Shown here in pieces: positions 1-28,397 of a stretch of DNA of 64,000 nt. The notes under the pieces were generated by a model, which saw only the letters and a list, made by a program, of their open reading frames with translations, searched no databases and had not been told where the DNA came from. Both the position numbers and the translations under genes were made by a program. The DNA comes from Ignavibacteriota bacterium (GTDB lineage: Bacteria > Bacteroidota > Ignavibacteria > UBA10030). Position 1 is the stretch's first letter. Every line of letters begins with the position of its first letter. Where the stretch lies: the NCBI GenBank assembly GCA_963727825.1, contig CAVSHO010000010.1:128001-192000 (forward strand), in the 5' to 3' direction.

Positions 1-2006
1 TTGTCGCCGGTGAGGCATTATGCCAAAACACTCAACCGCAGACAAAAGCGATTGATCCGGCGAATTTGGATCTTTCTATAAAGCCATGCGATGACTTTTT
101 CCATTATGCTAATGGTACGTGGATGAAAAATAATCCAATCCCCGCAGCCTACGATCAATGGGGAAGCTTTAATATTCTTGCCGATCACAATAGCGATGTG
201 CTTCATGAAATTCTCGAAGACGCAGCTAAGGATAAATCTGCTCCCACAGGAAGCAATAAACAAAAGATTGGCGACTTTTATGCCACAGGTATGGACTCTG
301 CCTCGATTGAAGCACTGGGAATGAAACCTATCGCAGGAGAACTGGACCGCATTGGAGCGATCAAAAATATGACGGATGTGCAGGGAGAAATCGATCGTCT
401 TCATTCTGTGAATCTGAATCCTCTTTTCGGCTTTGGCTCTGAACAAGATCCGAAGAATAGTAATGAAGTCATCGGCGAGATTCACCAGGGAGGTCTCGGG
501 CTGCCTGAACGTGATTACTATTTTTCAGAAGAATCTCGCTCCAAACGAATTCGTGAAGAATATGTAAAGCATATGACGGCGATGTTTAAATTGATAGGTG
601 ATGATACAACAAAGGCGGCTGCTTCCGCACAATCAGTGATGGCTTTTGAAACACAGCTCGCAAAGGAATCGCGTAAACTTGTTGATCTACGCGATCCTGA
701 TAAGAATTATAATAAAATGACACAGGAACAGCTTGCAGCGCTCGCTCCTGCTTTCGATTGGAAACGATATTTTACCGATTTGGGATGGTCAAATCCAGGA
801 AACGTTGATGTCGGTCAGCCAGAGTTTTTTAAAGAAGTGAATACCATGCTGGGAACCATTCCTATTGAGACATGGAAAAATTATCTCCGCTGGAGAGTGG
901 TGAGCAACTCTGCAAACGCTTTAAGTTCCGCATTTGTAGCAGAAAATTTCCATTTCCGCGGAACGATAATGACCGGTACAAAAGAAATGCAGCCGCGGTG
1001 GAAACGTATCCGGGGTGTAATTGATGGTCTCTTAGGAGAAGCTGTTGGTGAAGTATATGTTGCAAAAGCATTTCCTCCGGAAGCAAAGGCTCGTGCATTA
1101 GAATTGGTCAATAATATTAAACTCGCGCTGCGTGAGCATATTAATAATATTACGTGGATGGATAATACAACAAAACAGGCAGCACTTAAAAAGCTTGATG
1201 CGATTATGGTGAAGATTGGATATCCCGACAAATGGCGGGATTATAGCAAACTCAGTATCGATCGAAAATCCTATCTGGAAAATGTACGGCAGGCAGCACA
1301 TTTTGCCATACAGCGTGAAATTAATAAGATTGGCAAACCGGTGGACAGAACCGAATGGGAAATGTCACCACAGATTGTAAATGCATATTATGATCCATCA
1401 ATGAATGAAATCGTATTTCCAGCAGGAATTCTTCAACCTCCGTTCTTCGATTTCAAGGCAGATGATGCCGTGAACTACGGCGGCATTGGCGTTGTTATCG
1501 GCCACGAAATTTCTCATGGCTTCGACGACCAAGGAAGCAAATTTGACGCAGAAGGAAATTTGAAGATGTGGTGGACACCTGAGACACGCAAGAAATTCGA
1601 TGAACGAACGGGAATTCTCGCTCACCAGTTCGATAGCTTTATCCCAATTGATTCACTTCACGTTAACGGAACAGCTACACTCGGCGAAAACATCGGCGAC
1701 CTGGGCGGACTTGCCATTTCCTATACAGCTCTGGAGAATACACTCAAAGGAAAGAATGTTGAACCCATTGATGGCTTTACACCGGAACAAAGATTCTTCC
1801 TTTCGTTTGCACAATTGTGGCGGCAGAATGTGCGCCCGGAACGGCTTCGGATGCTCGTAAAAGTCGACGTTCACTCACCAGGTGAGTTCCGGGTCAATGG
1901 TCCGCTGCCAAATCTTCAAGCATTCTATGATGCATTTGGATGCGGTCAAGATGGAAAAATGTATTTAGCTCCAGAAAAACGCGCGTTGATCTGGAATCTA
2001 AAGTAG
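1..2006 (+). CDS. M13 family zinc metallopeptidase (PepO/neprilysin-like), 5'-truncated by window edge
   Basis: PCDDFFHYANG N-terminal motif, VNAYY, HEISH (HExxH) and GENIGD motifs. The frame is open upstream of the ORF-track start at 66 back to the window start. Confidence 0.93.
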   Translation, partial: VAGEALCQNTQPQTKAIDPANLDLSIKPCDDFFHYANGTWMKNNPIPAAYDQWGSFNILADHNSDVLHEILEDAAKDKSAPTGSNKQKIGDFYATGMDSASIEALGMKPIAGELDRIGAIKNMTDVQGEIDRLHSVNLNPLFGFGSEQDPKNSNEVIGEIHQGGLGLPERDYYFSEESRSKRIREEYVKHMTAMFKLIGDDTTKAAASAQSVMAFETQLAKESRKLVDLRDPDKNYNKMTQEQLAALAPAFDWKRYFTDLGWSNPGNVDVGQPEFFKEVNTMLGTIPIETWKNYLRWRVVSNSANALSSAFVAENFHFRGTIMTGTKEMQPRWKRIRGVIDGLLGEAVGEVYVAKAFPPEAKARALELVNNIKLALREHINNITWMDNTTKQAALKKLDAIMVKIGYPDKWRDYSKLSIDRKSYLENVRQAAHFAIQREINKIGKPVDRTEWEMSPQIVNAYYDPSMNEIVFPAGILQPPFFDFKADDAVNYGGIGVVIGHEISHGFDDQGSKFDAEGNLKMWWTPETRKKFDERTGILAHQFDSFIPIDSLHVNGTATLGENIGDLGGLAISYTALENTLKGKNVEPIDGFTPEQRFFLSFAQLWRQNVRPERLRMLVKVDVHSPGEFRVNGPLPNLQAFYDAFGCGQDGKMYLAPEKRALIWNLK

Positions 2007-2025
2007 AAAATATTTTGAGATATTG

Positions 2026-2061
2026 ATCCCGTCTTTTGTCCCTCAAGAGACGGGATTTTTT
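2026..2061 (+). terminator. Intrinsic terminator after M13 peptidase
   Basis: ATCCCGTCT...AGACGGGAT stem followed by a T-run. Confidence 0.75.
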
Positions 2062-2089
2062 CTATAGCAGCAAATTCCTATGGTAAGAG

Positions 2090-2163
2090 TGACCCCGGCG
2101 TGACTCGAACACGCGACCCACAGCTTAGAAGGCTGTTGCTCTATCCACCTGAGCTACGGGGCC
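2090..2163 (-). tRNA. tRNA-Arg(TCT), CCA not encoded
   Basis: Minus strand reads GGCCCCG TAGCTCAGGTGGATAGAGC A ACAGC-CTTCTAA-GCTGT GGGTC GCGTG-TTCGAGT-CACGC CGGGGTC A, a complete cloverleaf with anticodon TCT. Confidence 0.96.
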
Positions 2164-2274
2164 AAATATATTTTCCAATGAACGCTTAGTCCCGCTCGCG
2201 CAGTGCGCGGCGGGATTCTCATTCTGACACTGAACTTACCTGCACTTCGTTTAGTAAATTCAGTCAGAATGGAA

Positions 2275-2312
2275 AAGGCTGTTGCTCTATCCACCTGAGC
2301 TACGGGGCCAAA
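2275..2312 (-). repeat. 38-bp exact duplicate of the 5' half of tRNA-Arg (copy of 2129-2166)
   Basis: AAGGCTGTTGCTCTATCCACCTGAGCTACGGGGCCAAA occurs at 2129-2166 and 2275-2312. Confidence 0.95.
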
Positions 2313-2458
2313 ATATCTGATAATGAGCACCAGTTTTAGACAAATGCATATTACGAAAAATTCAATTTTGATTCAATGTCCGTCGTCCATGCATAATAAG
2401 AAAGGCTCAGATATTTCCGAGCCTTCTCAATACTACGAGAACCAATGAAACAATGCTA

Positions 2459-2854
2459 TTAAGGTTTTATATCCTTTTCAACAAATGAAATATAATCATC
2501 AGTCGTTCTTGCCAAACGCTCGGCAAGATTAACGAGAATTTTTTTTGTCACATCGGGATACTCTGCAATTAGCTGGTCCAGAGGCATATCAAAATGAACT
2601 GCTTTTGTCGGTTCAAGCGCGATCAGCGAAACAGTGCACGGCGTATTAAGGATAAAACTCAATTCTCCAAATACTATTCCCCGCTCATTAAATTCTGCAA
2701 CCTGCCGGTCGTGTTTATAAACACCGATTCTCCCTTCCAATAATATATACCATCCATTCGGCTTTTCTCCCTCGGTCGTAATCTGCTCTAGCTCGGCAAA
2801 TGTTCGAATGTTACTGGAGTATTCCGACATATTTTTTTCTATAGAATTATCCAT
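2459..2854 (-). CDS. Stand-alone cyclic nucleotide-binding domain protein
   Basis: EGEKPNGWYILLEGRI, VFGELSFI and terminal NLAERL helix are typical of cNMP-binding domains; no HTH. Confidence 0.8.
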   Translation of the reverse strand: MDNSIEKNMSEYSSNIRTFAELEQITTEGEKPNGWYILLEGRIGVYKHDRQVAEFNERGIVFGELSFILNTPCTVSLIALEPTKAVHFDMPLDQLIAEYPDVTKKILVNLAERLARTTDDYISFVEKDIKP

Positions 2855-2947
2855 TGTGCCTTTCTCCTTGTAGAACCAATGCTATATGTAATGTTAGCGA
2901 TTCCATTGGAATAATCCACGTATTTCACAAGCTCAATTTATTTTTGT

Positions 2948-4012
2948 TCACAAAGATATAGCTTGAATTGATTTAATCACATCTTCAACTTGAATTTCCT
3001 TCATACATCGGAAATGACTTTCCGGACATTCTTCACGGCCGATATGAGAGCAAGGCCTGCAATATAATCCATCCCGTTCCACTACTGCATTTTCTGTCCC
3101 TACCGGGAAAAAACCGAATTCGCGCACAGTTGAGCCAAAGATCGCAACCACTTTTTTCTTCATTGCAGCGGCAATATGCATCAGACCTGAGTCGTTGGTC
3201 ACGATAATTGTGCATGCGTCCATCGCAATCGCGCTTTCAAGAAGCGATAATTCGCCGCTGAGATTGATTGCACTTACTTCTTTACTTAATGAATTTATTG
3301 TTTTAGCGATAAAAGAACATTTTTCTTTATCTTGTTGTCCACCGAATAGAAGTATCTTTGCGTCATAATCCTTTGATAGTTTTGCGCCTAATTCTGCAAA
3401 ACGTCCCAGCGGCCAGCACTTGGTTGCATGCTTTGCTGATGGACAGAATCCGATCATCATGCCAGACTTTTGAACACTTAATTTTTTCATTTTGGCTGAA
3501 GCTTGCGCACGGATCTCATCTGAAATGTGCAACTCAAGGCCTTTGCCATCATTCTCAATCCTATACTTTTGTAAAGGCTCTATGTATCTGTCGGCAACGG
3601 ATATTACACCTCGGTAGAAATTCTTTTTCAATCGAATAAGCATCGTTCTTGAAAATATCCGCTTATTTATAACGACAACATCATTGGCTCCTAGCATCCA
3701 TCGAAGATAGCGGCTCCGTAAACTATTATGGATATCAATAACAAGATTATAGTGTTCTGCGCGAAGTTGATTTTTGAGCTTACGCAGTCCGGCAAGCCCA
3801 GTCTTCGCATCAAACTCATATATGCTGTTGAGATTTTTGTTATTGCAAATAAGTTCAGTGTATTCTTTCCGTACTATAAAATCTATTTTGGAAGATGGAA
3901 AACTTGCATGAAGCACGCGCATCAACGGCGTTGCCAATACGATGTCGCCTATTGAGCTAAATCGAATGATAAGTATTTTTTTAGGGGCGATCATATTGTG
4001 CTGAAAGTACAA
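2948..4012 (-). CDS. waaF: Lipopolysaccharide heptosyltransferase II (GT9)
   Basis: KILIIRFSSIGDIVL, TNDSGLMHIAAA and CRPCS...C...HFRCM motifs. True start may be the Met at 3994. Confidence 0.85.
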   Translation of the reverse strand: MYFQHNMIAPKKILIIRFSSIGDIVLATPLMRVLHASFPSSKIDFIVRKEYTELICNNKNLNSIYEFDAKTGLAGLRKLKNQLRAEHYNLVIDIHNSLRSRYLRWMLGANDVVVINKRIFSRTMLIRLKKNFYRGVISVADRYIEPLQKYRIENDGKGLELHISDEIRAQASAKMKKLSVQKSGMMIGFCPSAKHATKCWPLGRFAELGAKLSKDYDAKILLFGGQQDKEKCSFIAKTINSLSKEVSAINLSGELSLLESAIAMDACTIIVTNDSGLMHIAAAMKKKVVAIFGSTVREFGFFPVGTENAVVERDGLYCRPCSHIGREECPESHFRCMKEIQVEDVIKSIQAISL

Positions 4013-16351: not shown

Positions 16352-17050
16352 TTACTGAAGAAGATTTATTGCTGGAAGAAACCAAGCATAAAGTGCCCAG
16401 AGGGAGAAACCGACAGAGAGGGGAATTGAAAGGTTGTCATCAACTTTAATTGGAAGCGCTTCAACGACAGTGCCGATTGCCGCTGCAATAAAGCCGATTA
16501 TGTATTCTATCGGTAGTTGATCAATCTTTGGCGCGACTAGAATCACGAGTACAGCGGAAACAAAAAAAGCTGACGATCCTTCAAGACTTTTAGCAAGGAA
16601 ACGATGTTTGCCGAATCGCCTGCCAATAAGTGCCGAAGTTGTATCAGAGATTATGAGAATAGTAAAGGCGTTAATTGCGATGACTTTGGGAAATAATATT
16701 ACACATAAAAGTGCCGAGATAAGCACATTCGAAGCACCGCTTAATCTTTTTTTGTTGATATCGGTTTCATGCCGCCGCAGAAGCCAGCCAAACCATTTAT
16801 AAAACCATCGGGCAACAGTTGGGATATAATATCGCCCTATATCAATAATTATGCATACCGCTGTAATTGGGACAAGCAGATAAATTGCTGATCGCTTAGA
16901 GATAAAAAAATAAACAGTTGGGATTGAAAGAGAAAAAAGATGAATTGCTTTCCGAACCAACTCATGCTTGTATTCGATAGTTGCAGTATGATCAAGATGC
17001 CTTAACTCACTACCGCTCAAATTTAATTTCTCGTTACCGGTGTGAAGCAC
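16352..17050 (-). CDS. CTP-dependent polyprenol/diacylglycerol kinase (SEC59/DGK1/VTE5 family membrane protein)
   Basis: [33 protein letters not shown] and DDNLSIP motifs. Proposed GTG start overlaps the predicted true ftsH stop (TAGTG). Confidence 0.85.
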
Positions 17051-19198
17051 TATGATTTCTTCTCTTCGCTTATCGGCGGTTGAGGAGGCACAGTCACCTG
17101 TGCTTGTGGCGGTTTCGCTTCCGGTACCTTCAGCTGGAGATGATATTATATGATTCACATGTTTGTCAACAGGCGGCAATTCCTCTCCGCGAATAATTTT
17201 ATCTATTTCCTCGGAATCAAGGATTTCGCGCTCAAGCAACGCATTTGCCAGACGATGAAGAATCTTTGCATTTTCTTTTAGAATTTTATCAGCCCGCTTC
17301 ATTGCCCGCGTTACAATTAACCGCACTTCAGCATCGATAGCAATTGCCGTGTTTTCACTGAAGTTACGAGTTTTCGTAACTTCACGTCCTAAAAAGAGTT
17401 CTTCTTCTTTTGCTCCGTAAGCAAGTGGGCCAAGTTTATCGCTCATGCCCCATTCACATACCATTTTACGCGCAAGTTCGGTAGCGCGTTCAATGTCGTT
17501 ACCGGCTCCCGTAGTAAATTGGTCGAAGACTAACTTTTCTGCCGCGCGCCCGCCAAGAGCATAAGTGATCATTGCTTCAAGATATTCGCGTGAGTATGTA
17601 TGCTTCTCGTCGATTGGTAAATACGTTGTAACTCCTAGTGCACGCCCGCGTGGTATAATTGTCACCTTATGGACAGGATCGGCTTCAGGCAAACACCGAG
17701 CAACCAACACGTGACCTGATTCATGATACGAAGTCACTTTCTTTTCTTTGTCGGAAATAAGCATACTTTTCCGCTCAGTTCCCATCATCACTTTATCTTT
17801 AGCTTCTTCAAAGTGATGCATCGTCACGGCTTTACTGTTCTGTCGTGCAGCAAGCAATGCAGCTTCATTCACAAGATTGGCAATATCGGCACCAGATAAA
17901 CCCGGTGTTCCTTTTGCCAGAACATCCAATCGAACATCTCCATCGAGCGGAATATTTTTCGTATGCACACGGAAAATTCCCTCGCGACCTTTCACATCTG
18001 GCCGATCAACAACTATCTGTCGATCAAATCGACCAGGTCGCAATAGCGCAGGATCAAGAACGTCCGGACGATTTGTTGCTGCAATAATTATAACACCTGT
18101 GTTTTGTTCGAAGCCATCCATCTCTACCAATAATTGGTTAAGTGTCTGCTCGCGCTCGTCGTGCCCGCCGCCAATTCCGGCACCGCGATGCCTGCCCACC
18201 GCATCGATCTCATCGATAAAGATTATGCAGGGAGCGCTTCTTTTCCCTTGCTCAAATAAATCTCTCACGCGGCTTGCACCTACGCCAACGAACATTTCCA
18301 CAAAGTCTGCACCACTGATAGAGAAGAACGGAACGCCTGCTTCTCCTGCGACGGCGCGTGCAAGTAATGTTTTGCCAGTACCTGGAGGTCCAAGTAACAA
18401 CACACCTTTAGGAATTTTCCCGCCTAACCGTTGAAATTTCGCTGGCTCGCGCAGAAACTCAATAATCTCCTGTAATTCTAATTTAGCTTCATCCGCACCT
18501 GCAACATCAGTGAATGTCACCTGCATTAATCCTTCTGTCAACAGTTTTGCGCGGCTCTTTCCAAACGAGAACAATCCTTTCGCTCCTCCCGCTCCTCCGC
18601 CCGCACCGGCTTGCATCCTCCGGAAAATGAACAACCAAACTCCAATAAGTATAATCCATGGAAGAATACTGATCGCGGCATTCATCCATGTATTGTCTTC
18701 CTTTTCAACTCGGAACTTCAGACCTTTTGTCGTCCATGACGTTACGAGTGCATCATCAAGATTCGTGTATGGAAGTGTCAGTGTAATACGTGTTGCATTG
18801 CGTGCAGTCTTGCCGCTGGCCGTTTGAATATCTATCGGTTCTTTGAGTTTTCCATGAAAATCAAAGACGGCATACCCGCTAATCTTCACTGATGCATCGC
18901 TGAATTTTTGATCGTTCAGTAATTGTTGAAATGTTGTAAAGTTTATTTCGTACTCTGTTTCTTCATTTGTACGAAACATCCACATGAAAAAAATTACTGC
19001 AAGAATAATTGCGACCCAGCTCAATATGACTTTTCCAAATTTTGCCCACGGTGACATCTCTTCTCGTTGCTGTTTCATCTGCCGTTTTGGAAAGAGTTGA
19101 GGTGTTGTACGTTTTTTCTGAGGTGCGTTCTGATTCTTCTTTTCTTTGTTTTCGTCTTGCATATCGTTTTTCATTTCAAACTCCAATTTCGGGCTCAC
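17050..19198 (-). CDS. ftsH: ATP-dependent zinc metalloprotease FtsH (probable frameshift near 17145)
   Basis: Two TM helices, [19 protein letters not shown] ([20 protein letters not shown]) and HESGH. An alternative frame gives a natural tail [27 protein letters not shown] ending at 17050. Confidence 0.95.
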
Positions 19199-19200
19199 AC

Positions 19201-19764
19201 TTACTCTGGCTTAATGATTCCTTTTGGAGCAAGCCTATAAATTGACTTCAAGTTACGAACTTTTTGCGCGTAGTCCAAGCCATAGCCGATTACGAAATCT
19301 GGTGGAATCTCGAATCCAACATAATCAACCGGAAAGTCGATTTTCGGCACACCTTTCTTTAATAAGAGGGAAACGAGCTTAAGTGACTTCGGCTTTTCTT
19401 TTTCAATGATGTTCTTAATGAAGGCAATAGATAATCCAGAATCGACAATGTCCTCCACAACAAGTATATCACGCCCAGCAACCTCGCAATTCAAATTTTT
19501 TAATAGTTTCACTTGTCCAGAAGAAATTTTGGCATCGCCATAGCTGGATAGCTTAAAGAAATCCATTTCGCAATCGACGCTGACCTCTCGAATAAGATCG
19601 GCAAGAAAAATGAACGAACCGTTCAACACACCAATGAAGATAGGTGTCTTTCCTGCATAGTCGGCATTAATGCACACTGCAAGTTCTTTTATGCGTTTCC
19701 GTATTTGCTCTTCAGTGATGAAAAGTTCAAATGTATCGCCATTGATTTTAATAAATTCATCCAT
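19201..19764 (-). CDS. hpt: Hypoxanthine phosphoribosyltransferase
   Basis: [25 protein letters not shown] and FVIGYGLDY; sits in the tilS-hpt-ftsH cluster. Confidence 0.96.
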
Positions 19765-21148
19765 GGTAAGCTCTTGTTGATGGTTGACAGGTAAGCCGAA
19801 TTGCTGTTTGCGTTCGATCAGTCAATTTGAATCTATCATCTAACCGTTTACCGCAAATCCATACGATAGTGCCATCGGATTCCAAAACGGGAATGGAGGA
19901 TTTTTGATATCGCGGTACTTTTTGGTCGGTAAAGAAATCACTCAATTTCTTTTTCGTTTTCATCCCGAGCGGAATAAACCAATCACCGGCTTGCCACGGC
20001 CTAAGGATAAGTTGTTTACCTAATCGTTCGGCATCGATGTATTCCACTTCGTGTGTCCCGGCATATGTGGAAGGTACGTTTTCCGGCGAGCTGATTGAAA
20101 CAAGATAATCTTTATAGTCGTAGCTTTTACCGAATTCAACTTGCCTGATATTTGGCTGTTCATTGTCATTGACTTTGATAACGATATAATTTCGATCGCG
20201 GTATGCTGCCCATTTACTATTTAATTCCACAATTCGGCCTGTTGGCTGAGTGCAGAGCCGGTGCAGCGCATCAACTTTCTTTTCTGTCGGTTCAATTTTC
20301 ATCTGATTAAGAAGTTGAACAAAAATTTCATCCCATAGAAAATCCGGTTCCGATTTCAGTTTTTTTACACTCAACTTTAAGTAGTTTTGTGTATCTATCT
20401 GGATGACAGAATGAAATGTCCTATCAACAATCTTCCGCATTTTTTTGTTCACGTCTTGCATTATTTCAGCAATATGATTTAAAGTATGGATAATGCTAGG
20501 ATTATTTTCTTGCAGCACCGGAAGAATGTTGTGCCGCAGTTCATTCCTTCGATATGCAAGTGAAAGATTTGACGAATCGTTCCGAAATTTGATCCCCTGC
20601 TCTGCCGCATATGTGCTAATCTCTTTTCGTGTTGCAAATAGTAGCGGACGAATAATACATCCCAATTCGCGCTTCGGTGGAATTCCAGCTAAACCATGAA
20701 TACCTGTTCCTCGCACAATGTTGAGAAGTACTGTTTCGGCATTATCATCTGCATGATGCGCGGTTGCCACTGTATCTGCATTAATCTTCAATCTAACTTG
20801 TTCAAAACAATCATATCGGAGCATACGTGCAGCAAGTTGTTTTGAAAGTTTATGATCGTGGGCATACGACATCACATTGATTCGCTCACAATAGAATGGA
20901 ATGTGATAGAAATCCGACATCTCTTTAACAAATTTTTCATCATCCATCGATTCTTTGCCGCGCAATTGGTGATTGATGTGAATAACTGAAAGACGCAGTT
21001 TCATTTGCTCACGCAATTTTGAGAACAGATGAAGCATAACCATCGAATCAATGCCGCCGCTTATCGCAAGAAGTATGGATTGCCCTGACGACACCAACTT
21101 TTGGCGTTGAATAAACCTTACAAGCTTTGTTTCAAATGAATTCATCAT
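19757..21148 (-). CDS. tilS: tRNA(Ile)-lysidine synthase
   Basis: AISGGIDS PP-loop, ATAHHADDNAET, IIRPLL, DSSN...RNELR and C-terminal KKKLSDFFTDQKVP. Confidence 0.96.
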   Translation of the reverse strand: MMNSFETKLVRFIQRQKLVSSGQSILLAISGGIDSMVMLHLFSKLREQMKLRLSVIHINHQLRGKESMDDEKFVKEMSDFYHIPFYCERINVMSYAHDHKLSKQLAARMLRYDCFEQVRLKINADTVATAHHADDNAETVLLNIVRGTGIHGLAGIPPKRELGCIIRPLLFATRKEISTYAAEQGIKFRNDSSNLSLAYRRNELRHNILPVLQENNPSIIHTLNHIAEIMQDVNKKMRKIVDRTFHSVIQIDTQNYLKLSVKKLKSEPDFLWDEIFVQLLNQMKIEPTEKKVDALHRLCTQPTGRIVELNSKWAAYRDRNYIVIKVNDNEQPNIRQVEFGKSYDYKDYLVSISSPENVPSTYAGTHEVEYIDAERLGKQLILRPWQAGDWFIPLGMKTKKKLSDFFTDQKVPRYQKSSIPVLESDGTIVWICGKRLDDRFKLTDRTQTAIRLTCQPSTRAYHG

Positions 21149-21179
21149 ATACGAGAACCAAGTCAGGCAATACTGGCTT

Positions 21180-21210
21180 AAAAAAAAACTTGACTTAAAT
21201 TCAAGTCAAG
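21180..21210 (-). terminator. Terminator-like hairpin upstream of tilS
   Basis: CTTGACTT-N6-AAGTCAAG followed on the minus strand by a 9-nt U-run. Confidence 0.55.
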
Positions 21211-21379
21211 ATGAGGCTGTTACGCTTTTAAGATACTGGTTTTTGGAAGGAAAGACAAGACGATGGAATGACTATGGGTGCAAGGTTTTTGAATATCGAG
21301 GTAAATAAAGATTAGGAAGAAATCTCTTTATTTTGTTGAATCAATAGTAGAGCGCCGTGGTTCTCTGCATACTCAAGAA

Positions 21380-21850
21380 TTATTTCCCCTTTTTTCTCTT
21401 CTTCTGCACTACGGCTTGAGAGGAATATTTTTTTTCAAGAAGCTCGATAAAATTGACAGTTGGCAGGAGAAATTTTCCATGCAATGATGTTCCCGTTGCT
21501 TGCCCTACAATTCCACGCGCAATCGCATAGGTCATTGCAAGACCGTTCGGGCCAAGCAAGGTAGATATTTTGTCTTCTGAAATCGACTTGTCAAATTCAA
21601 CAAAGGCCTGCAAGGCAATTCTTATACGATATGGTGCTCGTTTGAATGCTTCTTCGGAAGAATTGATATCAACTTGTAAATCGATTCGAAACACCGGTTC
21701 AAGTTCTTGCTTCTTGAAATCAAAGTTGATTCCAATTTGTCCTTCATAAGGTTTGTTCTTGGAGCCATCGAATTCTGTGTTTGCCTGGAGATGCAGACCC
21801 AGCAAAACATAATCTCTAAGCTGCATTGGGGAGATTGGATTCATATTCAT
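21380..21850 (-). CDS. SecB-like chaperone (TAC chaperone)
   Basis: 156 aa with PYRIRIALQAFVEF and LLGPNGLAMTYAIARGIVGQAT...LLPTVNFIELL, matching the SecB C-terminal pattern; third gene of a TA operon. Confidence 0.8.
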   Translation of the reverse strand: MNMNPISPMQLRDYVLLGLHLQANTEFDGSKNKPYEGQIGINFDFKKQELEPVFRIDLQVDINSSEEAFKRAPYRIRIALQAFVEFDKSISEDKISTLLGPNGLAMTYAIARGIVGQATGTSLHGKFLLPTVNFIELLEKKYSSQAVVQKKRKKGK

Positions 21851-22205
21851 CCTTCAATGAAACAGAAGTATTGAAACCTTCATTGTTAATATGCCTATAG
21901 GAAAAATGATAGAACCGTTGAACATCTGCATTCCGCGGTTTGAGTGCAATATCGAGTTCCTTTCCCAGAGCCAATGCAACCTCAAGAAGTTTTTTCAATG
22001 TCAGATTCTCGGTGCCATTCAACAGTTTCGTAATATAGGCATTCGAACAATTCAACTGTTTGGCAAGCTGTGTCCGTGTGAACTTCTTTCTTTCCATTTC
22101 CCCGACAAGTTGTTCATTGATATCAATGAGCAGCCCTTCCAGAATGTATTCGGGATCGTCCTTATACTGTTCAGCAAGTTTCCGATATCGGTCGATAAGT
22201 GCCAT
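21816..22205 (-). CDS. XRE/HigA-like HTH antitoxin with C-terminal chaperone-addiction-like extension
   Basis: TRTQLAKQLNCSNAYITKLLNGTENLTLKKLLEVALALG HTH, then an aromatic-rich tail (FYHFSY) ending in -NAA. Confidence 0.85.
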   Translation of the reverse strand: MALIDRYRKLAEQYKDDPEYILEGLLIDINEQLVGEMERKKFTRTQLAKQLNCSNAYITKLLNGTENLTLKKLLEVALALGKELDIALKPRNADVQRFYHFSYRHINNEGFNTSVSLKDEYESNLPNAA

Positions 22206-22214
22206 GGCTGTGCC

Positions 22215-22586
22215 TTATGTTAAATTGTTCACGATTTCTTTATAAATGCGTTGCGCTTTTTCTAATTCAGCAGGTGGTAAATCTTGTCTCTTTTTGATAT
22301 ATCCATGTGTCAGGACAATCGTTCGTTTTAATGAACGTGGAAGATAAAAACAAAGAATTCTAACCTGAAATGATTTAAACGCATAAATCGGTTTCTCTTC
22401 AAATCGAAATTTTTCTTTGTTTCTGATTTCTCCGCTCCGCGCAAATTCTTCAAGCAAACGAAGCGTTTTCTTACGATCAGAGAGTATAAGCCCCTCAAGA
22501 AAGTCTACAGCAAGTGCCTCACCTCGCGGGTTAATATATGCATAGATGTCAGCGTTTTGACCTGGGATGTATAATTCAATCGCCAC
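22215..22586 (-). CDS. RelE/HigB-family (Gp49-like) toxin
   Basis: IYAFKSFQVRILCF...IVLTHGYIKKRQDLPPAELEKA pattern of Gp49/HigB toxins; lies upstream of an HTH antitoxin. Confidence 0.85.
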   Translation of the reverse strand: MAIELYIPGQNADIYAYINPRGEALAVDFLEGLILSDRKKTLRLLEEFARSGEIRNKEKFRFEEKPIYAFKSFQVRILCFYLPRSLKRTIVLTHGYIKKRQDLPPAELEKAQRIYKEIVNNLT

Positions 22587-22590
22587 TATG

Positions 22591-22619
22591 AATTTAACCT
22601 ATAAGTTAAACGATGTCAA
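22591..22619 (-). promoter_or_regulatory. sigma70 promoter of the TAC operon with an overlapping palindromic operator
   Basis: TTGACA (22619-22614)-17 bp-TAAATT (22596-22591); near-palindrome TTTAACCTATAAGTTAAA at 22593-22610. Confidence 0.75.
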
Positions 22620-22769
22620 GTACTTTTTCGTTCCAGAACTGCCCATCTTTATTACCCTAAGCTGTATGTGATTTGCACTCACGAACTCCTTTTAACAGCC
22701 AACAATTGTTTTGGTCGGGAGAATATCTCCCTCCCAGCTTTGGTGAGCCTGTCAAACCACCTCCAATTT

Positions 22770-25700
22770 TTATCTCTTCTCCATCTCCCGCACAATCTTC
22801 ATCGTCTTAACGCTTACCGTGCAGACTTTTTTCAGCAACTCTATCACTTCTTTTTTGTAATCAGAAAATTTGTAGGAGTTAAACTTCTCAGCAATTGTCG
22901 GATCGCTAGGCGTGCTTTCTTTGTATTGATCCAAAACCCATTCCAGTGCGCTGCGGTTACCGAGTTTGTATTCCCACGCTTCTTTTGGGACGCCTGTCAA
23001 TGTCGTTTCATCGTCAATTATAATTGCGCCATTTTCTTTATCGGCTTTGAGTTTGGGTTTCAGCGAAACCTTCCGAAGGTCTCTACGATTCGCTGTGATC
23101 TTCGGAAGGTTAAACGGTTTTGCCTTCTCATAATTCACATGCAAATCCATCAATTGCTTGCCCCATTCTGCCCATTGCCAGAAATCGTCGTACAGCGGTA
23201 CACGCGGAAATTCGCGTTTGAGATTAATTTCATATTTCTTCCGGTAGGCAGGATTGTGCAGCACGGCATAGACATAATGGAAGATATCTTCTTTGGTAAT
23301 CGTCGTAACCTTGCGAAGGTTCTTAGCGGTTGCGCTTGTAACCTTCGCAAGGTTTTCTTCATACTTCTTTCTAAACTGCTCTAAACCCCAATCCGTTATA
23401 TTCTCCACGCGCGTGCCGTCGTTTGCAAAGCGATAAAGCGAAATACATTGTCCATTGGGTGTCAATTGAAGATGCGGAATATACTTTGTAGCTAATGTAT
23501 GAAATGGTTTTTCCATTCCAACGCCATTAAAACAAATGCAAATATTTTTCTTTTCAAAGTATTCTCCAAACATTTCAGTATGATTGGATGTCAATCGATC
23601 ATTCCAATATTTATCTGCATAATAGTACAAAACAGTATATGGGCGGAAATGTGATTTAACAATTAACTTCTTATCAAATTTTGGTTCTATTCTATTATCG
23701 AATTTCCTCTTTAAAGTTTCACTCCATTTAATTGTATCTGGATAGGATTTATTCCTTTTTTTGAGCAATTCAATAATTGTTCGGTTTTCATATAAAAATT
23801 TCTTTTTCAAATTCTCCGAAGAAACATCATATACCCATTCATCGCGATTTGAAACCGTTCCGGGTGATGAAACAGCGAAAATCGATTCATCTCCTACCGT
23901 TGCGATCATTTTATCCCAATCGTTGTCCGAAATATTAATCCAGTTGTTATTTTTATCCGGCTGGACGGTCTCAAATGTTATTTGCTTTAACGGATTGCTT
24001 GAAAGCCATCCAAGTTTTTCTTCCTTCCTCCAAAAATCATCCATTGAGGTATAACGGATAAGACACTTCGTATTATCGCGATTTTCTTTCCTCACTAAGA
24101 ACATCAACGCAACGCCCGTTTGAATACCAAAAACATTGTGTGTTGTTCCAGCAATTTTAGGATTCTGTCTTACATCGCTTTTCGTGTCGATGATGTAGGC
24201 ATAATCAAAATCGTTATAGACACACTTGCGAAATCCGTCAAATGTCCTGCTGTCGATAAACGAGCGATTGGTAATGAACGCAACGACACCATTTTCATCT
24301 AACCGATCAAATGCCCAGCGGTAAAATCGTGCATACATATCGTACAGTTTTGTTTTCTGAGCAGTGCTGTATTTGATAAACGTATCTTTAATCCGTTTAT
24401 CGATGACCGGGTACTCACGATTCTTATTATTCTCATTTTCATTTTGCTGGTTTGCATTATACGGCGGGTTGCCGATAATCACTGAGATTTTCTTTTTGTT
24501 CTGCCGTTTTATGCGCTCTACATTTTCCGCGCTTACGGCAAACAGCCCTTCCTGTTTGTGCCGGTATCCGAATCCCATATTATCCAGCGTATCTACAAAG
24601 CATAGATTTTGAAACTCGGCATACTGCTCCATCTTCTGTTTGTAGGTAAATTCGATGTTCAGGTTGGCAATGTAATAAGGGAGAATTGCCACCTCGTTGG
24701 CATGGAGTTCGTTTTTGTATTTGTATTCCAGCTTGTCGTTGCGTATGTGATCGATAATATCGCAGATGAACGTCCCCGTGCCGGTGGCGGGATCGAGAAT
24801 TTCTACGTCCTTGTCTTCCAAGAACTTGCCGAAGTGTTTGTGCAAAAGATGGTCAGTGCTTTCTACCATAAAGCGCACAATTTCGTTGGGTGTATAAACC
24901 ACGCCGAGCCGGTCGGCGGCTTTGGGATTATAGCTTTTGTAAAACGTTTCGTAAACAGCTTTGAGGAATTTCTGTTTCTCGTGGTGGTCGGCAATTCCCG
25001 CCGCCGCTGCGTTGATCGCCTGATAATAATGCTGAATGCGGTTGAGTGTTTTCTTGCGCACATCGGCAATAAAAAAAGTGTCCACTACTTTTTCCAACGC
25101 CTTTGCCACATTGTTTTCGCGGTGGAAGTACGGCTCATCGAACACGGTGTTGAAAATATCCGCGGTGAGAATATGCTGGATCATCATTTCGGTAATATCA
25201 CCGAGCGTAATCTGCGGGTTTATCGCCTCTTTGCATATCTCGAAGAACTCGTCGCGTGCTTCGACATAGAACTTGTTGTGCTTCTCGGCTTGCGCCATTA
25301 CATTCCGAAGCGTTTCAGTTACATTCGGCACATCTTCTTTAAAGAGTTCAATTGCCTTCCGGAAGGTTTCCACTTCCGGTCGCTGGTAGCTGACGAATTC
25401 TTTTAGAATTCTATCTAACGCATCGGCATCACTGAAAGAGGCACGATCAACTTCAATGCCGCTTTGAATCAGGACGGCGGTGTTGCTATCTTCAAAGAGA
25501 ATATTAACATCTGGATAACCTTTTTCAAATTTCTTTTGGATTTCTTCATCGATGTCATCGGCTTCGTCTTTACTTTCCCAATAACCCCAATCCTGACGCA
25601 AACTGTCCTTGAGCGTGCCGTCCGGTTTTACTTTTCTACCGAGCTTGCCTTTTACCCAAACTTGCGGAACCAGCATCAATTCTTTTTGCTGTGCGTAGTC

Positions 25701-25811
25701 GTTGAGCAGTGTATAGAATGCCTGACTGACGGTAGATTCCATTTTTGTGCCGCCGCGCTGCTTGAGTTTTTCTACTTCCTGATAATAGTGTTGTATGCTG
25801 TTTGTCGTCAT
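22770..25811 (-). CDS. Single-chain restriction-modification enzyme (nuclease + N6-adenine MTase + Type ISP-like C-terminal specificity region; no helicase)
   Basis: N-terminal PDGT...WESK nuclease motif, ILDPATGTGTF (motif I), IIGNPPY (motif IV) and LlaBIII-like C-terminus (IFHYVYAVLH.P.YR..Y...L.REFPRVP; AWEYKLGNRSALEW). Confidence 0.88.
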   Translation of the reverse strand: MTTNSIQHYYQEVEKLKQRGGTKMESTVSQAFYTLLNDYAQQKELMLVPQVWVKGKLGRKVKPDGTLKDSLRQDWGYWESKDEADDIDEEIQKKFEKGYPDVNILFEDSNTAVLIQSGIEVDRASFSDADALDRILKEFVSYQRPEVETFRKAIELFKEDVPNVTETLRNVMAQAEKHNKFYVEARDEFFEICKEAINPQITLGDITEMMIQHILTADIFNTVFDEPYFHRENNVAKALEKVVDTFFIADVRKKTLNRIQHYYQAINAAAAGIADHHEKQKFLKAVYETFYKSYNPKAADRLGVVYTPNEIVRFMVESTDHLLHKHFGKFLEDKDVEILDPATGTGTFICDIIDHIRNDKLEYKYKNELHANEVAILPYYIANLNIEFTYKQKMEQYAEFQNLCFVDTLDNMGFGYRHKQEGLFAVSAENVERIKRQNKKKISVIIGNPPYNANQQNENENNKNREYPVIDKRIKDTFIKYSTAQKTKLYDMYARFYRWAFDRLDENGVVAFITNRSFIDSRTFDGFRKCVYNDFDYAYIIDTKSDVRQNPKIAGTTHNVFGIQTGVALMFLVRKENRDNTKCLIRYTSMDDFWRKEEKLGWLSSNPLKQITFETVQPDKNNNWINISDNDWDKMIATVGDESIFAVSSPGTVSNRDEWVYDVSSENLKKKFLYENRTIIELLKKRNKSYPDTIKWSETLKRKFDNRIEPKFDKKLIVKSHFRPYTVLYYYADKYWNDRLTSNHTEMFGEYFEKKNICICFNGVGMEKPFHTLATKYIPHLQLTPNGQCISLYRFANDGTRVENITDWGLEQFRKKYEENLAKVTSATAKNLRKVTTITKEDIFHYVYAVLHNPAYRKKYEINLKREFPRVPLYDDFWQWAEWGKQLMDLHVNYEKAKPFNLPKITANRRDLRKVSLKPKLKADKENGAIIIDDETTLTGVPKEAWEYKLGNRSALEWVLDQYKESTPSDPTIAEKFNSYKFSDYKKEVIELLKKVCTVSVKTMKIVREMEKR
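23067..23111. repeat. 45-bp in-frame inverted-repeat element inside the RM gene
   Basis: AACCTTCCGAAGGT-17 nt-ATCTTCGGAAGGTT, arms 13/14 complementary. Confidence 0.85.
23307..23354. repeat. 48-bp in-frame inverted-repeat element inside the RM gene
   Basis: AACCTTGCGAAGGTT-18 nt-AACCTTCGCAAGGTT, perfect 15-bp arms. Confidence 0.9.
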
Positions 25812-25987
25812 AAACAACTATCGCTTAGTAATTTTGTTGGAGTGCTTGTCACCGTTAATCTACCGAACCCTTAGCTTTTATGCAATGTTGTCTCCTTAAT
25901 AAAACAAAAACCCCAATGCTCTATTAAACACTGGGGATTAGGGATACTAACGCGCTATTGGGGAGACCGGTGCAAGATCACTTTTCA

Positions 25988-26422
25988 CTACTTCAGATGC
26001 CCGACTGCCTCTTCCACTGCTCCAACAAAATCATTTGCAGCATTGTTGAACACAGCAATACTTCGCCTTGATAATTTGTTCGGGTCTTCTTTTGACGGCT
26101 GGCTTTCGCTAATTGAGAAATAGCGCGATTTGTTCTTTGCTTCTTTCACATCTACGTAATATGTGATCTTCCCTGACTTCATTTTCCTCGTGAACTCACC
26201 TTCACCATCAATTACTGTTTTCGCTTCTTTCAATGCACTGATGAATTCATCTGCCACGCTGCCAAAGACGGTTACGCTGCGTTTCGCAAATTGCTTTTCT
26301 CCTTCCTTCGGCGGCTGGCTTGCTGTAACAGTGAGATATTTCTTGTTGTTCTTCGCCTCTTTCACATCCATGAAATAGGTGGTAGAGCCCGCTTTGAGCG
26401 TTTTGCTGAATAGTGCATCCAT
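25988..26422 (-). CDS. PUR-family (DUF3276-like) ssDNA/RNA-binding protein with two tandem repeats
   Basis: FSKTLKAGSTTYFMDVKEAKNNKKYLTVTAS and FTRKMKSGKITYYVDVKEAKNKSRYFSISES, each followed by a strand and an amphipathic helix. Confidence 0.8.
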   Translation of the reverse strand: MDALFSKTLKAGSTTYFMDVKEAKNNKKYLTVTASQPPKEGEKQFAKRSVTVFGSVADEFISALKEAKTVIDGEGEFTRKMKSGKITYYVDVKEAKNKSRYFSISESQPSKEDPNKLSRRSIAVFNNAANDFVGAVEEAVGHLK

Positions 26423-26641
26423 GACATTACTCCCTAATTGATATTATTGATTTGTGAATTAGTAAAACGTAGTTAAAAATAAATACAGCACGTTCAACTT
26501 AATTGACAGAACAAAAATGCCAATACTGAAATCATGAAAGATGAATGACCCAGAATATCCAATGAATCGTAGTAATAAGGGATAGCTTTAGTAGTATCAC
26601 CCCGAAAAAAACTACAGTTTTTAAAGAGAAATGTCAAGAAT

Positions 26642-26676
26642 AAAAAACGCCCCTCAAACCTTGCGGCTGAGAGGCG
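26642..26676 (-). terminator. groEL intrinsic terminator
   Basis: Imperfect GC-rich stem (CGCCCCTCA/TGAGAGGCG) followed by U6 on the minus strand. Confidence 0.7.
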
Positions 26677-26756
26677 CCTGTTTTAACATTGGTATGTTAT
26701 TTGTCAGAAGTTGAAATCAATCATACTTAATACTTTTGACTTCAAACTTTAACTTT

Positions 26757-28397
26757 TTAGTACATATCTCCGCCCATACCACCACCCGGAGGCATTGGAG
26801 GCATAGAATCCTTCTTCTCCGGTTTCTCTACTATGGTTGCTTCTGTTGTCAACAATAAGCCGGCAACACTGGACGCGTTTTCAATTGCAATACGGGCAAC
26901 CTTAGTCGGGTCGATAACACCGGACTTCACGAGGTTTTCGTACTTTTCTGTCTGCGCATTGAAACCGTAATCATCTTTGCCATTCTTTACTTCGTTCACA
27001 ACGACAGCGCCGTCATAACCGGCATTTGCGGCAATCTGGCGAAGCGGCTCTTCCAAAACACGGCGGATAATATTTACGCCCGTCTTCTGGTCAAGATTTT
27101 CCGTCTTTACTTCATCAAGCTTTTTCACACAACGAAGGAATGCAACGCCACCGCCTGGAATGATACCTTCCTCGACCGCTGCCCGTGTGGCATGAAGTGC
27201 GTCTTCTACACGCGCTTTCTTTTCCTTCATCTCTACTTCTGTTGATGCACCAATTTTAAGTACGGCAACACCTCCAGAAAGTTTTGCGAGGCGTTCCTGC
27301 AATTTTTCCTTGTCGTAATCGGATGTGGTCTTATCAATCTGCTGTTTGATTTCGTTGATGCGCTTTTTGATATCTTCCTTCTTGCCGGCACCTTGCACAA
27401 TCGTCGTATTGTCTTTATCGATTGTGACACGGTTGGCAGTTCCAAGATATGCAAGCGTCGCATTCTCAAGCTTATAGCCCTTTTCTTCGGAGATAACTTG
27501 ACCGCCGGTGAGGATAGCAATATCTTCCAGCATTGCTTTGCGACGATCGCCGAAGCCCGGAGCTTTCACTGCGCAAATGCGAAGTGTGCCTCGTAACTTG
27601 TTCACTACCAATGTAGCAAGCGCTTCGCCTTCCACCTCTTCCGAGATGATTAGCAGGCTTTTTCCGGCTTGAGCAATTTTTTCTAATATTGGCAGCAAAT
27701 CCTTCATGGCACTTATTTTCTTGTCATGAATTAGGATGTATGGATTTTCAAGAACGGTTTCCATTCTATCTGCATCGGTTACAAAATATGGCGACAGATA
27801 ACCGCGGTCGAACTGCATCCCTTCGACAACCTCTAAAGTTGTCTCAGTGCCTTTTGCTTCTTCAACTGTAATGACGCCATCTTTGCCAACTTTTGCCATA
27901 GCATTGGCAATCAATTCGCCAATAGCACTGTCATTGTTTGCAGAGATGGAACCAACTTGTGCAATCTTTTCTTTATCATCACCAACAGTCTTGCTGATTT
28001 CTTTGAGACCTTCGACGACTTTTTTCACAGCTAGATCGATTCCGCGTTTCAAATCCATCGGATTAGCGCCGGCAGTTACGTTCTTCAATCCTTCGCGCAC
28101 AATTGCTTGTGCAAGAATTGTTGCGGTCGTAGTGCCATCACCAGCAACATCGGATGTCTTTGAGGCGACTTCGCGAACCATCTGTGCGCCCATGTTTTCG
28201 ATAGGATCAGAAAGTTCGATTTCTTTCGCCACTGTCACACCATCTTTAGTAATTGTTGGTGCGCCAAATTTTTTATCTATTACAACGTTGCGCCCTTTGG
28301 GTCCAAGTGTCACCTTCACTGCATTTGCGAGTTGATCAACACCCTTCTTTAAAGCGGCACGCGCTTCAGTTTCATAATTAATTAATTTCGATGCCAT
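26757..28397 (-). CDS. groL: Chaperonin GroEL
   Basis: [22 protein letters not shown] and GGM tail; start set at MASKLINY. Confidence 0.99.

Follow-up and report, generated by a model that had tools for sequence, protein, structure and literature searches.

A 64,000-nucleotide (nt) stretch of DNA from an Ignavibacteriota bacterium (contig CAVSHO010000010.1 of assembly GCA_963727825.1; hereafter the window) was found to carry, at positions 21380-22586, a toxin-antitoxin-chaperone (TAC) module in which a SecB-like chaperone accompanies a HigB-type toxin and a HigA-type antitoxin. The assignment of these three genes to a TAC module is well supported. On the basis of analogy with characterized systems, we further consider it quite probable that they form a horizontally acquired, chaperone-addicted HigB-HigA-SecB(TA) module, which would work by the steps set out below.

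Inspection of the open reading frames (ORFs) of the window revealed three co-oriented minus-strand ORFs within this interval, in the order toxin, antitoxin, chaperone. The first (22215-22586, 123 amino acids (aa), GTG start) is a Gp49-type HigB toxin of the RelE superfamily, with a Pfam PF05973 match (E 1.5e-6) of 28.6 bits, above the cut-off of 23.9. After a spacer of 9 nt follows the antitoxin gene (21816-22205, 129 aa), encoding an XRE-type helix-turn-helix (HTH) HigA protein with a C-terminal extension, as judged from matches to Pfam HTH_3 (E 3.4e-8) and PADLOC PDC-M64B (E 3.3e-10). The third gene (21380-21850, 156 aa from the first ATG) encodes the SecB-like TAC chaperone with a polybasic C-terminal tail. 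Its best PADLOC model was PD-T4-9_C, the CmdC chaperone (E 2.7e-6), and the PDC-M64C model also matched (E 1.7e-4). A first-pass annotation of this DNA had proposed three tightly linked minus-strand genes for a Gp49/HigB-like toxin, an XRE-HTH antitoxin and a SecB-like protein; all three ORFs lie where it placed them, and the family matches agree. The locus thus has the three tightly linked same-strand genes, in the order T-A-C, by which TAC modules are recognized, and the complete order was present in 6 of 13 loci taken from genomes of other species.

The toxin retains the positions expected of its family. A profile built from 8 homologues retrieved Streptococcus pneumoniae HigB from the Protein Data Bank (PDB; 6af3, E 6.7e-11), and residues K71, R76 and K98 of the toxin, invariant in 8/8 sequences, align with R68, R73 and K92 of that structure. 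The account in PMC9098466 presents these three as catalytic residues, equivalent to those of RelE and of the M. tuberculosis TAC toxin. With a score over the curated cut-off and the catalytic residues in place, the Gp49/HigB-like assignment held, and the protein is expected from its sequence to be a ribosome-dependent mRNA endonuclease.

A prominent feature of the antitoxin is its C-terminus. Residues 92-129 (21819-21932, minus strand) form a tail resembling the chaperone addiction (ChAD) regions of TAC antitoxins, with the segments RFYHFSYRH and EGFNTSVSL, an acidic stretch and a terminal Ala-Ala. This tail, quoted in the first-pass annotation as RFYHFSYRHINNEGF...NLPNAA and put there at about 38 aa, extends 38 residues past the end of the HTH domain (profile position 91). 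In the AlphaFold2 model of the antitoxin, helices occupy residues 2-79, and pLDDT values over residues 90-129 were 55, 49, 49 and 44. Among 14 aligned antitoxin homologues the tail keeps its basic/hydrophobic stretch, a second motif with an aromatic residue, the acidic stretch and the terminal Ala-Ala. The position of F111, in the second motif, is aromatic in 13 of the 14; 11 end in -AA and two in Ala-Val, and one decayed copy differs.

The tail was then set against homologues of the same toxin family. The toxin profile was run against 400 genomes of the phylum and the window's own; 125 of the 401 matched, and the best 30 loci were examined. Three of these 30 were of the TAC type, all with an antitoxin extension of 38 residues and an -AA end (3/3). 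A SecB-like ORF follows in two of the three; the third stops short, and the same record (L001) shows a chaperone match running to the contig end. The remaining 27 were two-gene HigBA loci with extensions of -2 to 14 residues (median 7), among which neither a SecB-like ORF (0/27) nor an -AA end (0/27) was found. The 38-residue extension therefore has no counterpart in the chaperone-less homologues. According to PMC5105189, ChAD regions were defined by the presence of an extension in chaperone-linked antitoxins only, and the pattern of 3/3 vs 0/27 is that same signature. Among the loci examined, the extra tail is thus specific to chaperone-linked antitoxins.

The identity of the third protein was addressed at the level of structure. 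A profile of the chaperone family retrieved only 1fx3 (E 0.11) and chance cadherin matches from the PDB; this search of solved structures was too weak, and a fold search was therefore needed. An AlphaFold2 model built on 41 homologues (pLDDT 86.4) has four strands followed by a long and a short helix. Foldseek with this model returned H. influenzae SecB (1fx3, E 6e-7) and Rv1957 with its ChAD peptide (5mtw_C, E 1e-6). The best matches, to H. influenzae SecB, E. coli SecB and Rv1957, had E values from 6e-7 to 1e-6, TM scores of 0.56-0.66 and identities of 11-14%. There were 23 matches at E<=1e-3, and those listed were all SecB or SecB-like folds. The fold check proposed with the first-pass annotation thus gave SecB, as expected, and by its predicted structure the third protein has a SecB fold.

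A SecB fold would also be found if the third gene were an ordinary export SecB that merely adjoins an ordinary HigBA pair, and this is the only SecB-like gene in a 3.1-Mb, 96.8%-complete genome. The host also encodes a SecA-like ORF with a SEC-C motif, which was rejected as an indicator of SecB, because SecB-less control genomes match too and the motif does not discriminate. Other features of the gene make an export SecB very improbable. A search with the family profile found it in 0/36 genomes of the same family, including 0/15 of the same genus, and in 1 of 24 genomes of the same order. The gene lies within an insert, and its start overlaps the end of the antitoxin gene in 9/9 loci. The acidic cluster D27, E31 and E86 of H. 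influenzae SecB, to which PMC6377645 attributes roles in SecA binding, reads G18, Q22 and R77 in the chaperone, in a weak alignment (E 0.11). Instead of an acidic C-terminus the protein has a polybasic one; across the 41 family members this tail contains a median of 8 Lys/Arg vs 2 Asp/Glu, and in 36 its net charge is positive. Neither a score above the curated SecB cut-offs nor the status of a core gene of the lineage, the two marks of a housekeeping SecB, was found for this protein.

The family is also larger than its curated matches indicate. Among 1.84 billion representatives clustered at 50% identity, 2563 clusters resembled the chaperone at E<=1e-3, 512 at E<=1e-10 and 28 at E<=1e-30. The nearest ESM Atlas cluster has 286 members, only 29% of which are recognized by Pfam SecB. 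The chaperone clade is therefore not rare; it is a sizeable, very divergent SecB(TA) clade missed by the curated SecB models.

Binding of the tail by the chaperone was modelled by co-folding four chaperone copies with tail residues 86-129, in three runs and with three controls, which covers the multimer of SecB tetramer and tail suggested in the first-pass annotation. The score was 0.44 (runs 0.51, 0.44 and 0.14) against 0.18 for the best control, a value that may reflect memory, as a like complex (5MTW) is solved. Contact agreement was at least 49% and partner pLDDT at least 46. Of 157 solved complexes 116 passed the mark set for this test, as did 2 of 215 mismatched pairs; only 18 of the 157, and both of those mismatches, passed with a score of 0.60 or below. 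The models are consistent with binding of the antitoxin tail by the chaperone and lend it weak support, not proof.

The antitoxin and chaperone genes overlap out of frame (21816-21850, minus strand, read directly from the DNA). The 35-nt overlap originally noted holds for the first ATG (21850); from the second ATG (21844) the overlap is 29 nt and the protein 154 aa. The second start appears more likely, because an AAGGA motif at 21854-21850 stands 5 nt before it, because the consensus N-terminus of the chaperone homologues is MNxISPLQLRDY, and because the database's own call (P0001) is 154 aa long. In all nine loci examined the chaperone gene begins 17-38 nt ahead of the antitoxin stop and is read in the +1 frame; a GAGG/AAGGA motif precedes the start by 5-8 nt and falls within the acidic codons of the tail. 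The overlap and the internal motif suggest that translation of the chaperone is coupled to that of the antitoxin.

The overlap makes the end of the antitoxin dual coding. The Ala-Ala-stop codons GCA GCT TAG read Gln-Leu-Arg, which is conserved, in the chaperone frame of the window. At other loci Ala-Ala-stop is read as Leu-Leu-Asp/Glu and Ala-Val-stop as Gln-Tyr-Lys, so that -AA persists across two different chaperone-frame readings. The suggestion that this end resembles a ClpX degron is plausible. The host encodes ClpX (622.8 bits, above the cut-off) with ClpP adjoining (289.5 bits), and its tmRNA tag, ANYDYALAA, ends in -LAA. Only 14 of 2285 genome ORFs of at least 150 aa end in -AA, vs 11/14 of the aligned antitoxin homologues. 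CmdA is reported to end in LAA and to be degraded by ClpP, with an AA-to-DD change abolishing CmdTA toxicity, and the M. tuberculosis antitoxin to end in a Val-Ala degron (bioRxiv 10.1101/2024.02.24.581848; PMC11618068). On these grounds the terminal -AA may plausibly serve as a ClpXP degron.

Upstream of the toxin gene, a consensus scan revealed a promoter-like TTGACA-17 nt-TAAATT (22591-22619, minus strand, 10/12 matches), which ends 4 nt before the start codon and whose frame also precedes the toxin gene in L001, L002 and L003. Comparison of upstream regions showed a palindrome, TTTAAC-N6-GTTAAA (22593-22610, minus strand), over the -10 hexamer, a putative HigA operator. It is present exactly and in the same place in four of the seven upstream regions examined (the window, L001, L002 and L003). 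Variants were found in a Nitrospirota metagenome-assembled genome (MAG), GTTAAC-N6-GTTAAC (L004), and in an Ignavibacteria MAG, TTAACC-N4-GGTTAA (L006), and only an imperfect copy in the Desulfuromonas locus L008. The M. tuberculosis antitoxin-chaperone complex is described in PMC6377645 as autorepressing on one palindrome, and the palindrome of the window would fit a site of autorepression by the HTH dimer. Downstream of the operon, the consensus scan gave a terminator-like hairpin with a T-run (21189-21210, minus strand), within a flank common to congeners (21180-21260).

The placement of the palindrome bears on a different assignment of the HTH protein, as the controller (C) protein of the adjacent restriction-modification gene and not an antitoxin. 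On that strand, 183 nt upstream, stands the restriction gene, and there are weak matches to PADLOC Control_protein (E 0.0027) and PDB 3clc (E 0.0012); matches to the antitoxins HipB and HigA were, however, as good or better. The conserved palindrome precedes the toxin gene and not the restriction gene, and in L001, L004 and L006, TAC loci without any restriction gene, the HTH gene still accompanies those for HigB and the SecB-like protein. We therefore give a C protein hardly any chance and retain the antitoxin assignment.

The TAC operon and the restriction gene lie together in a 4.7-kb insert (about 21261-25979) between tilS (19757-21148) and a DUF3276 gene (25988-26422), delimited by comparison with five genomes of the same genus. 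In three congeners (G015, G009 and G010) tilS and the DUF3276 gene are adjacent, about 90-300 bp apart. DNA contigs of two runs (X1 and X2) match the window up to 21260 and then diverge. The TAC module was probably acquired horizontally, as an insert together with the restriction enzyme. No convincing direct repeats were seen around the insert, and no RNA gene matched Rfam in 20500-26800 at E<=0.1. The restriction gene (22770-25817, minus strand) encodes a Type IIG/ISP-like restriction-modification enzyme of 1015 aa (PADLOC REase_MTase_IIG, 884 bits, E 3.7e-266) with the Pfam domains Type_ISP_C, ISP_coupler, N6_Mtase and Eco57I. In a further congener (G006) the tilS/DUF3276 site holds a different insert of 10.6 kb, with a Type I hsdRMS system (1098 bits), a PDC-M66A-like gene and a 290-aa gene (L023, G006:C13:186000-198500). 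The short end segments of that insert resemble window positions 21261-21384 and 25902-25979, a likeness that suggests cassette exchange within a shared frame.

Several features of these neighbours are recorded here in their own right. The restriction enzyme covers the coupler, methyltransferase and specificity parts of Type ISP only (positions 735-1635 of the 1646-residue model) and the whole of the 1024-residue Type IIG model, and no separate nuclease or ATPase gene stands beside it in the insert. Its coding region contains two near-perfect 22-nt inverted repeats (23067-23111 and 23307-23354; 82-86% complementary, loops of 1-4 nt). Outside the insert, an FtsH homologue (16352-19198) is unusually long, with 948 aa, about 280 of them past the M41 peptidase domain.

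On the basis of these results and the published systems, we propose the following mechanism. HigB would act as a ribosome-dependent mRNA endonuclease, as its family and conserved catalytic residues indicate. HigA would neutralize HigB, and the HigA dimer would repress the operon at TTTAAC-N6-GTTAAA over the -10 box. The disordered 38-residue tail of HigA, with its two aromatic motifs and Ala-Ala end, would be unstable unless held by the SecB-like tetramer, whose gene would be translationally coupled to the antitoxin through the 29-35-nt overlap. When the chaperone is titrated away, the exposed -AA would hand HigA to ClpXP, HigB would be freed and translation would stop. The most likely trigger, judging from genomic context, would be newly made phage structural proteins competing for the chaperone, in which case the module and the neighbouring Type IIG enzyme would be partners in a small defence islet, with the module acting by abortive infection.

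The anti-phage part of this proposal is plausible from context, namely the Type IIG neighbour, the insertion hotspot with other defence genes and the PADLOC matches; against a stress or addiction role its chances are roughly even. The same TAC mechanics could operate without phage sensing, in a stress-responsive or addiction cassette that protects the 4.7-kb islet, restriction gene included, from being lost and that fires once the chaperone runs short, under general proteotoxic stress or after the operon itself is gone. According to PMC3581621, TACs were originally described as horizontally acquired modules that respond to stress, the cassette is patchily distributed and sits within an insert, and no phage association was found for the clade in IMG/VR, beyond one distant TAC, or by tblastn against phage and plasmid records. 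On the other side, three E. coli TACs are reported to defend against phages through chaperone competition (bioRxiv 10.1101/2024.02.24.581848; PMC11618068), and G006 has a Type I system at the same hotspot. Moreover, at 4 of 7 complete T-A-C loci the gene immediately upstream is a defence gene: a Type IIG gene in the window, L002 and L003, a GajB/UvrD-like one in L008. Taken as a whole account of the module, the stress or addiction cassette is possible but doubtful.

The proposed mechanism also presupposes that the module is functional. Decayed copies do occur elsewhere: in a Thermodesulfovibrio MAG (L011) the toxin gene is broken into two ORFs, -AA is missing from the antitoxin and all of the chaperone but its last ~40 residues is gone, and a Melioribacter MAG (L007) has antitoxin and chaperone with no toxin ORF of at least 40 aa. 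In the window, by contrast, none of the three frames is broken or shortened, and the catalytic residues, promoter, operator and overlap are all preserved. Contigs from two RNA libraries, lying over the gene junctions, span 21633-21953 with 31 differences, and hence stem from a relative, and about 22152-22316 with 1-3 differences; such contigs do not prove transcription and are a weak hint of activity, and stretches that they leave uncovered carry no meaning. That the module is an inactive remnant is thus highly unlikely.

A number of observations weigh against the chaperone-addicted, phage-sensing HigBAC reading. The toxicity, the dependence on the chaperone, the proteolysis and the triggering by phages are all predicted properties. 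The chaperone falls below the Pfam SecB cut-off (PF02556, 20 vs 26 bits) and far below those of NCBIfam NF004392 (21.4 vs 143 bits) and TIGR00809 (15.7 vs 102.8 bits), and its family profile did not retrieve Rv1957 from the PDB at E<=1. The sequence of the first tail motif is not conserved among homologues, and with one of three co-folding runs at 0.14 the overall support for tail binding is weak. Conservation of -AA is confounded by dual coding with conserved chaperone residues; as its codons are shared with the chaperone frame, it is not independent of the chaperone's first strand. E. coli HigBAC is reported not to have needed ClpXP (bioRxiv 10.1101/2024.02.24.581848), so that a HigBAC may do without the degron step. 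Only 4 nt separate the -10 box from the GTG, which puts the promoter or the start codon in doubt. Finally, tblastn searches of 50,697 phage and 72,556 plasmid records yielded nothing, and IMG/VR gave one distant TAC only (L025, 26% identity).

A bolder version of the proposal, which we put forward as a speculation with little likelihood, is that a distinct HigBAC clade (Ignavibacteria, Nitrospirota and Desulfobacterota; ~512 clusters of 50% identity at E<=1e-10) is a co-translational phage sensor. Its polybasic chaperone tail would tether the chaperone to ribosomes or nucleic acid, where it would choose between nascent ChAD and nascent phage structural proteins, with the degron, the ribosome-binding site and the first strand of the chaperone written in the same 30 bases. 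If this were true, the shared bases would prevent the instability signal of the antitoxin from being separated from its protector by mutation or recombination.

The operon, the operator and the out-of-frame overlap recur in Nitrospirota, Desulfuromonas and Ignavibacteria-like MAGs. Host GroEL shares 78-79% identity with its counterparts in a Melioribacter MAG and an Ignavibacteria MAG, and 80-83% with those in the MAGs carrying L001, L002 and L003. These three were deposited as Chitinophagales/Chitinophagaceae, GroEL and kinship place them with the Ignavibacteria-like genome of the window, and one of the three records belongs to the same order as that genome. We therefore take the three MAGs to be probably Ignavibacteria-like and the names under which they were deposited to be unreliable. 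Table S1 of PMC3581621, the TAC census of 2013, lists only Proteobacteria, Firmicutes, Actinobacteria, Thermotogae, Deinococcus-Thermus, Verrucomicrobia and Synergistetes; Bacteroidota, Ignavibacteria and Nitrospirota are not among the lineages of that table. A full-text search for literature on SecB with toxin-antitoxin systems in Ignavibacteria turned up only an unrelated paper, on HipA kinases.

The first-pass annotation had presented the locus as a divergent TAC in a lineage for which it knew of no characterized one. The lineage and the divergent chaperone clade are indeed new, whereas the aromatic ChAD, the Ala-Ala ClpX degron and the AA-to-DD test were already published for CmdTAC, and the Val-Ala end for M. 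tuberculosis. Current understanding is not overturned, and the conceptual elements are all in print already. Some details specific to the clade deserve mention: degron and start codon lie within a long overlap, the antitoxin tail is short and has two motifs, and the chaperone carries a polybasic tail. The findings extend chaperone-addicted toxin-antitoxin systems to Ignavibacteria-like and Nitrospirota genomes, which are absent from the census table of PMC3581621. The clean contrast, with tail and -AA only where a chaperone follows, could be used for automatic TAC annotation. With its short tail, embedded degron/start overlap and polybasic chaperone tail, the module would also be a small model in which to ask how the length of the ChAD and the degron determine the threshold of firing.

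Two further arrangements were encountered among the other MAGs. The MAG carrying the L002 TAC has a second, CmdTAC-like triplet (L017, G042/G062 contig C205:833-4183). Its first protein (171 aa) matches PD-T4-9_A (E 8.5e-5), the second (87 aa) ends in -VA, and the third (135 aa) is SecB-like, with a match to PD-T4-9_C (E 5e-19). In two Planctomycetota MAGs (L012 and L013, ~1930-3490) a SecB-like gene (PD-T4-9_C, E 2.4e-11) follows two genes, one for a protein of 180-181 aa that ends in -AA and one for a protein of 133-161 aa; no PADLOC model matches either product. These last loci may be TACs built on an unrecognized toxin-antitoxin pair.

Comparison with known systems places the module as follows. 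Housekeeping SecB of E. coli and H. influenzae (PF02556, TIGR00809) shares the fold and the strand-helix order of the window chaperone. It differs in that the window protein scores below the cut-offs, does not keep the acidic SecA-binding cluster (in the weak alignment) and has a basic C-tail, and in that its gene is accessory and coupled to an antitoxin gene. The PADLOC candidate system PDC-M64, for which a full-text search found no literature, matches the antitoxin (PDC-M64B) and the chaperone (PDC-M64C), whereas the toxin gave no match to any PDC-M64 model at E<=1. In CmdTAC/PD-T4-9 (PMC11618068), the chaperone model PD-T4-9_C is the one that best fits the window chaperone, and the -AA end of the window antitoxin is like the LAA reported for CmdA. 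In the model published there, a capsid protein displaces the chaperone and ClpP then degrades the antitoxin. The CmdT toxin is an ADP-ribosyltransferase and the antitoxin is not of the XRE type; the window toxin, in contrast, is a Gp49 HigB without a PD-T4-9_A match, and not an ADP-ribosyltransferase.

HigBAC of E. coli NT1F31, compared here by its description in bioRxiv 10.1101/2024.02.24.581848 and not by sequence, is likewise a HigB-HigA-SecB(TA) operon and, as in the window, sits in a variable defence locus. According to that description, aromatic residues of the ChAD slot into pockets of the chaperone and the trigger is competition for the chaperone. Its ChAD has 96 residues and four aromatic motifs vs ~38 residues and two motifs in the window, its instability is reported to be independent of ClpXP whereas the window tail ends in -AA, and it is borne on a prophage whereas the window module is chromosomal and lies beside a restriction gene.

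The M. tuberculosis TAC (HigB1-HigA1-SecB(TA), Rv1955-Rv1957; PDB 5MTW) shares with the window the order T-A-C, a Gp49/RelE HigB, an XRE HigA and a chaperone with the SecB fold, and neither host has a housekeeping SecB (PMC3581621, as regards M. tuberculosis). Both antitoxins carry a disordered C-terminal extension with aromatic and basic motifs (...HFSYRH in the window vs the published WHRLSSYR), which measures ~38 residues in the window vs a reported 45 in M. tuberculosis, and both end in a small aliphatic pair (Ala-Ala in the window, Val-Ala in the published M. tuberculosis sequence). The two chaperones, however, are only 12% identical by structural alignment, and the family profile of the window chaperone misses Rv1957. 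The window module is further set apart from the M. tuberculosis TAC by its 29-35-nt overlap, its polybasic chaperone tail and its Ignavibacteria-like lineage.

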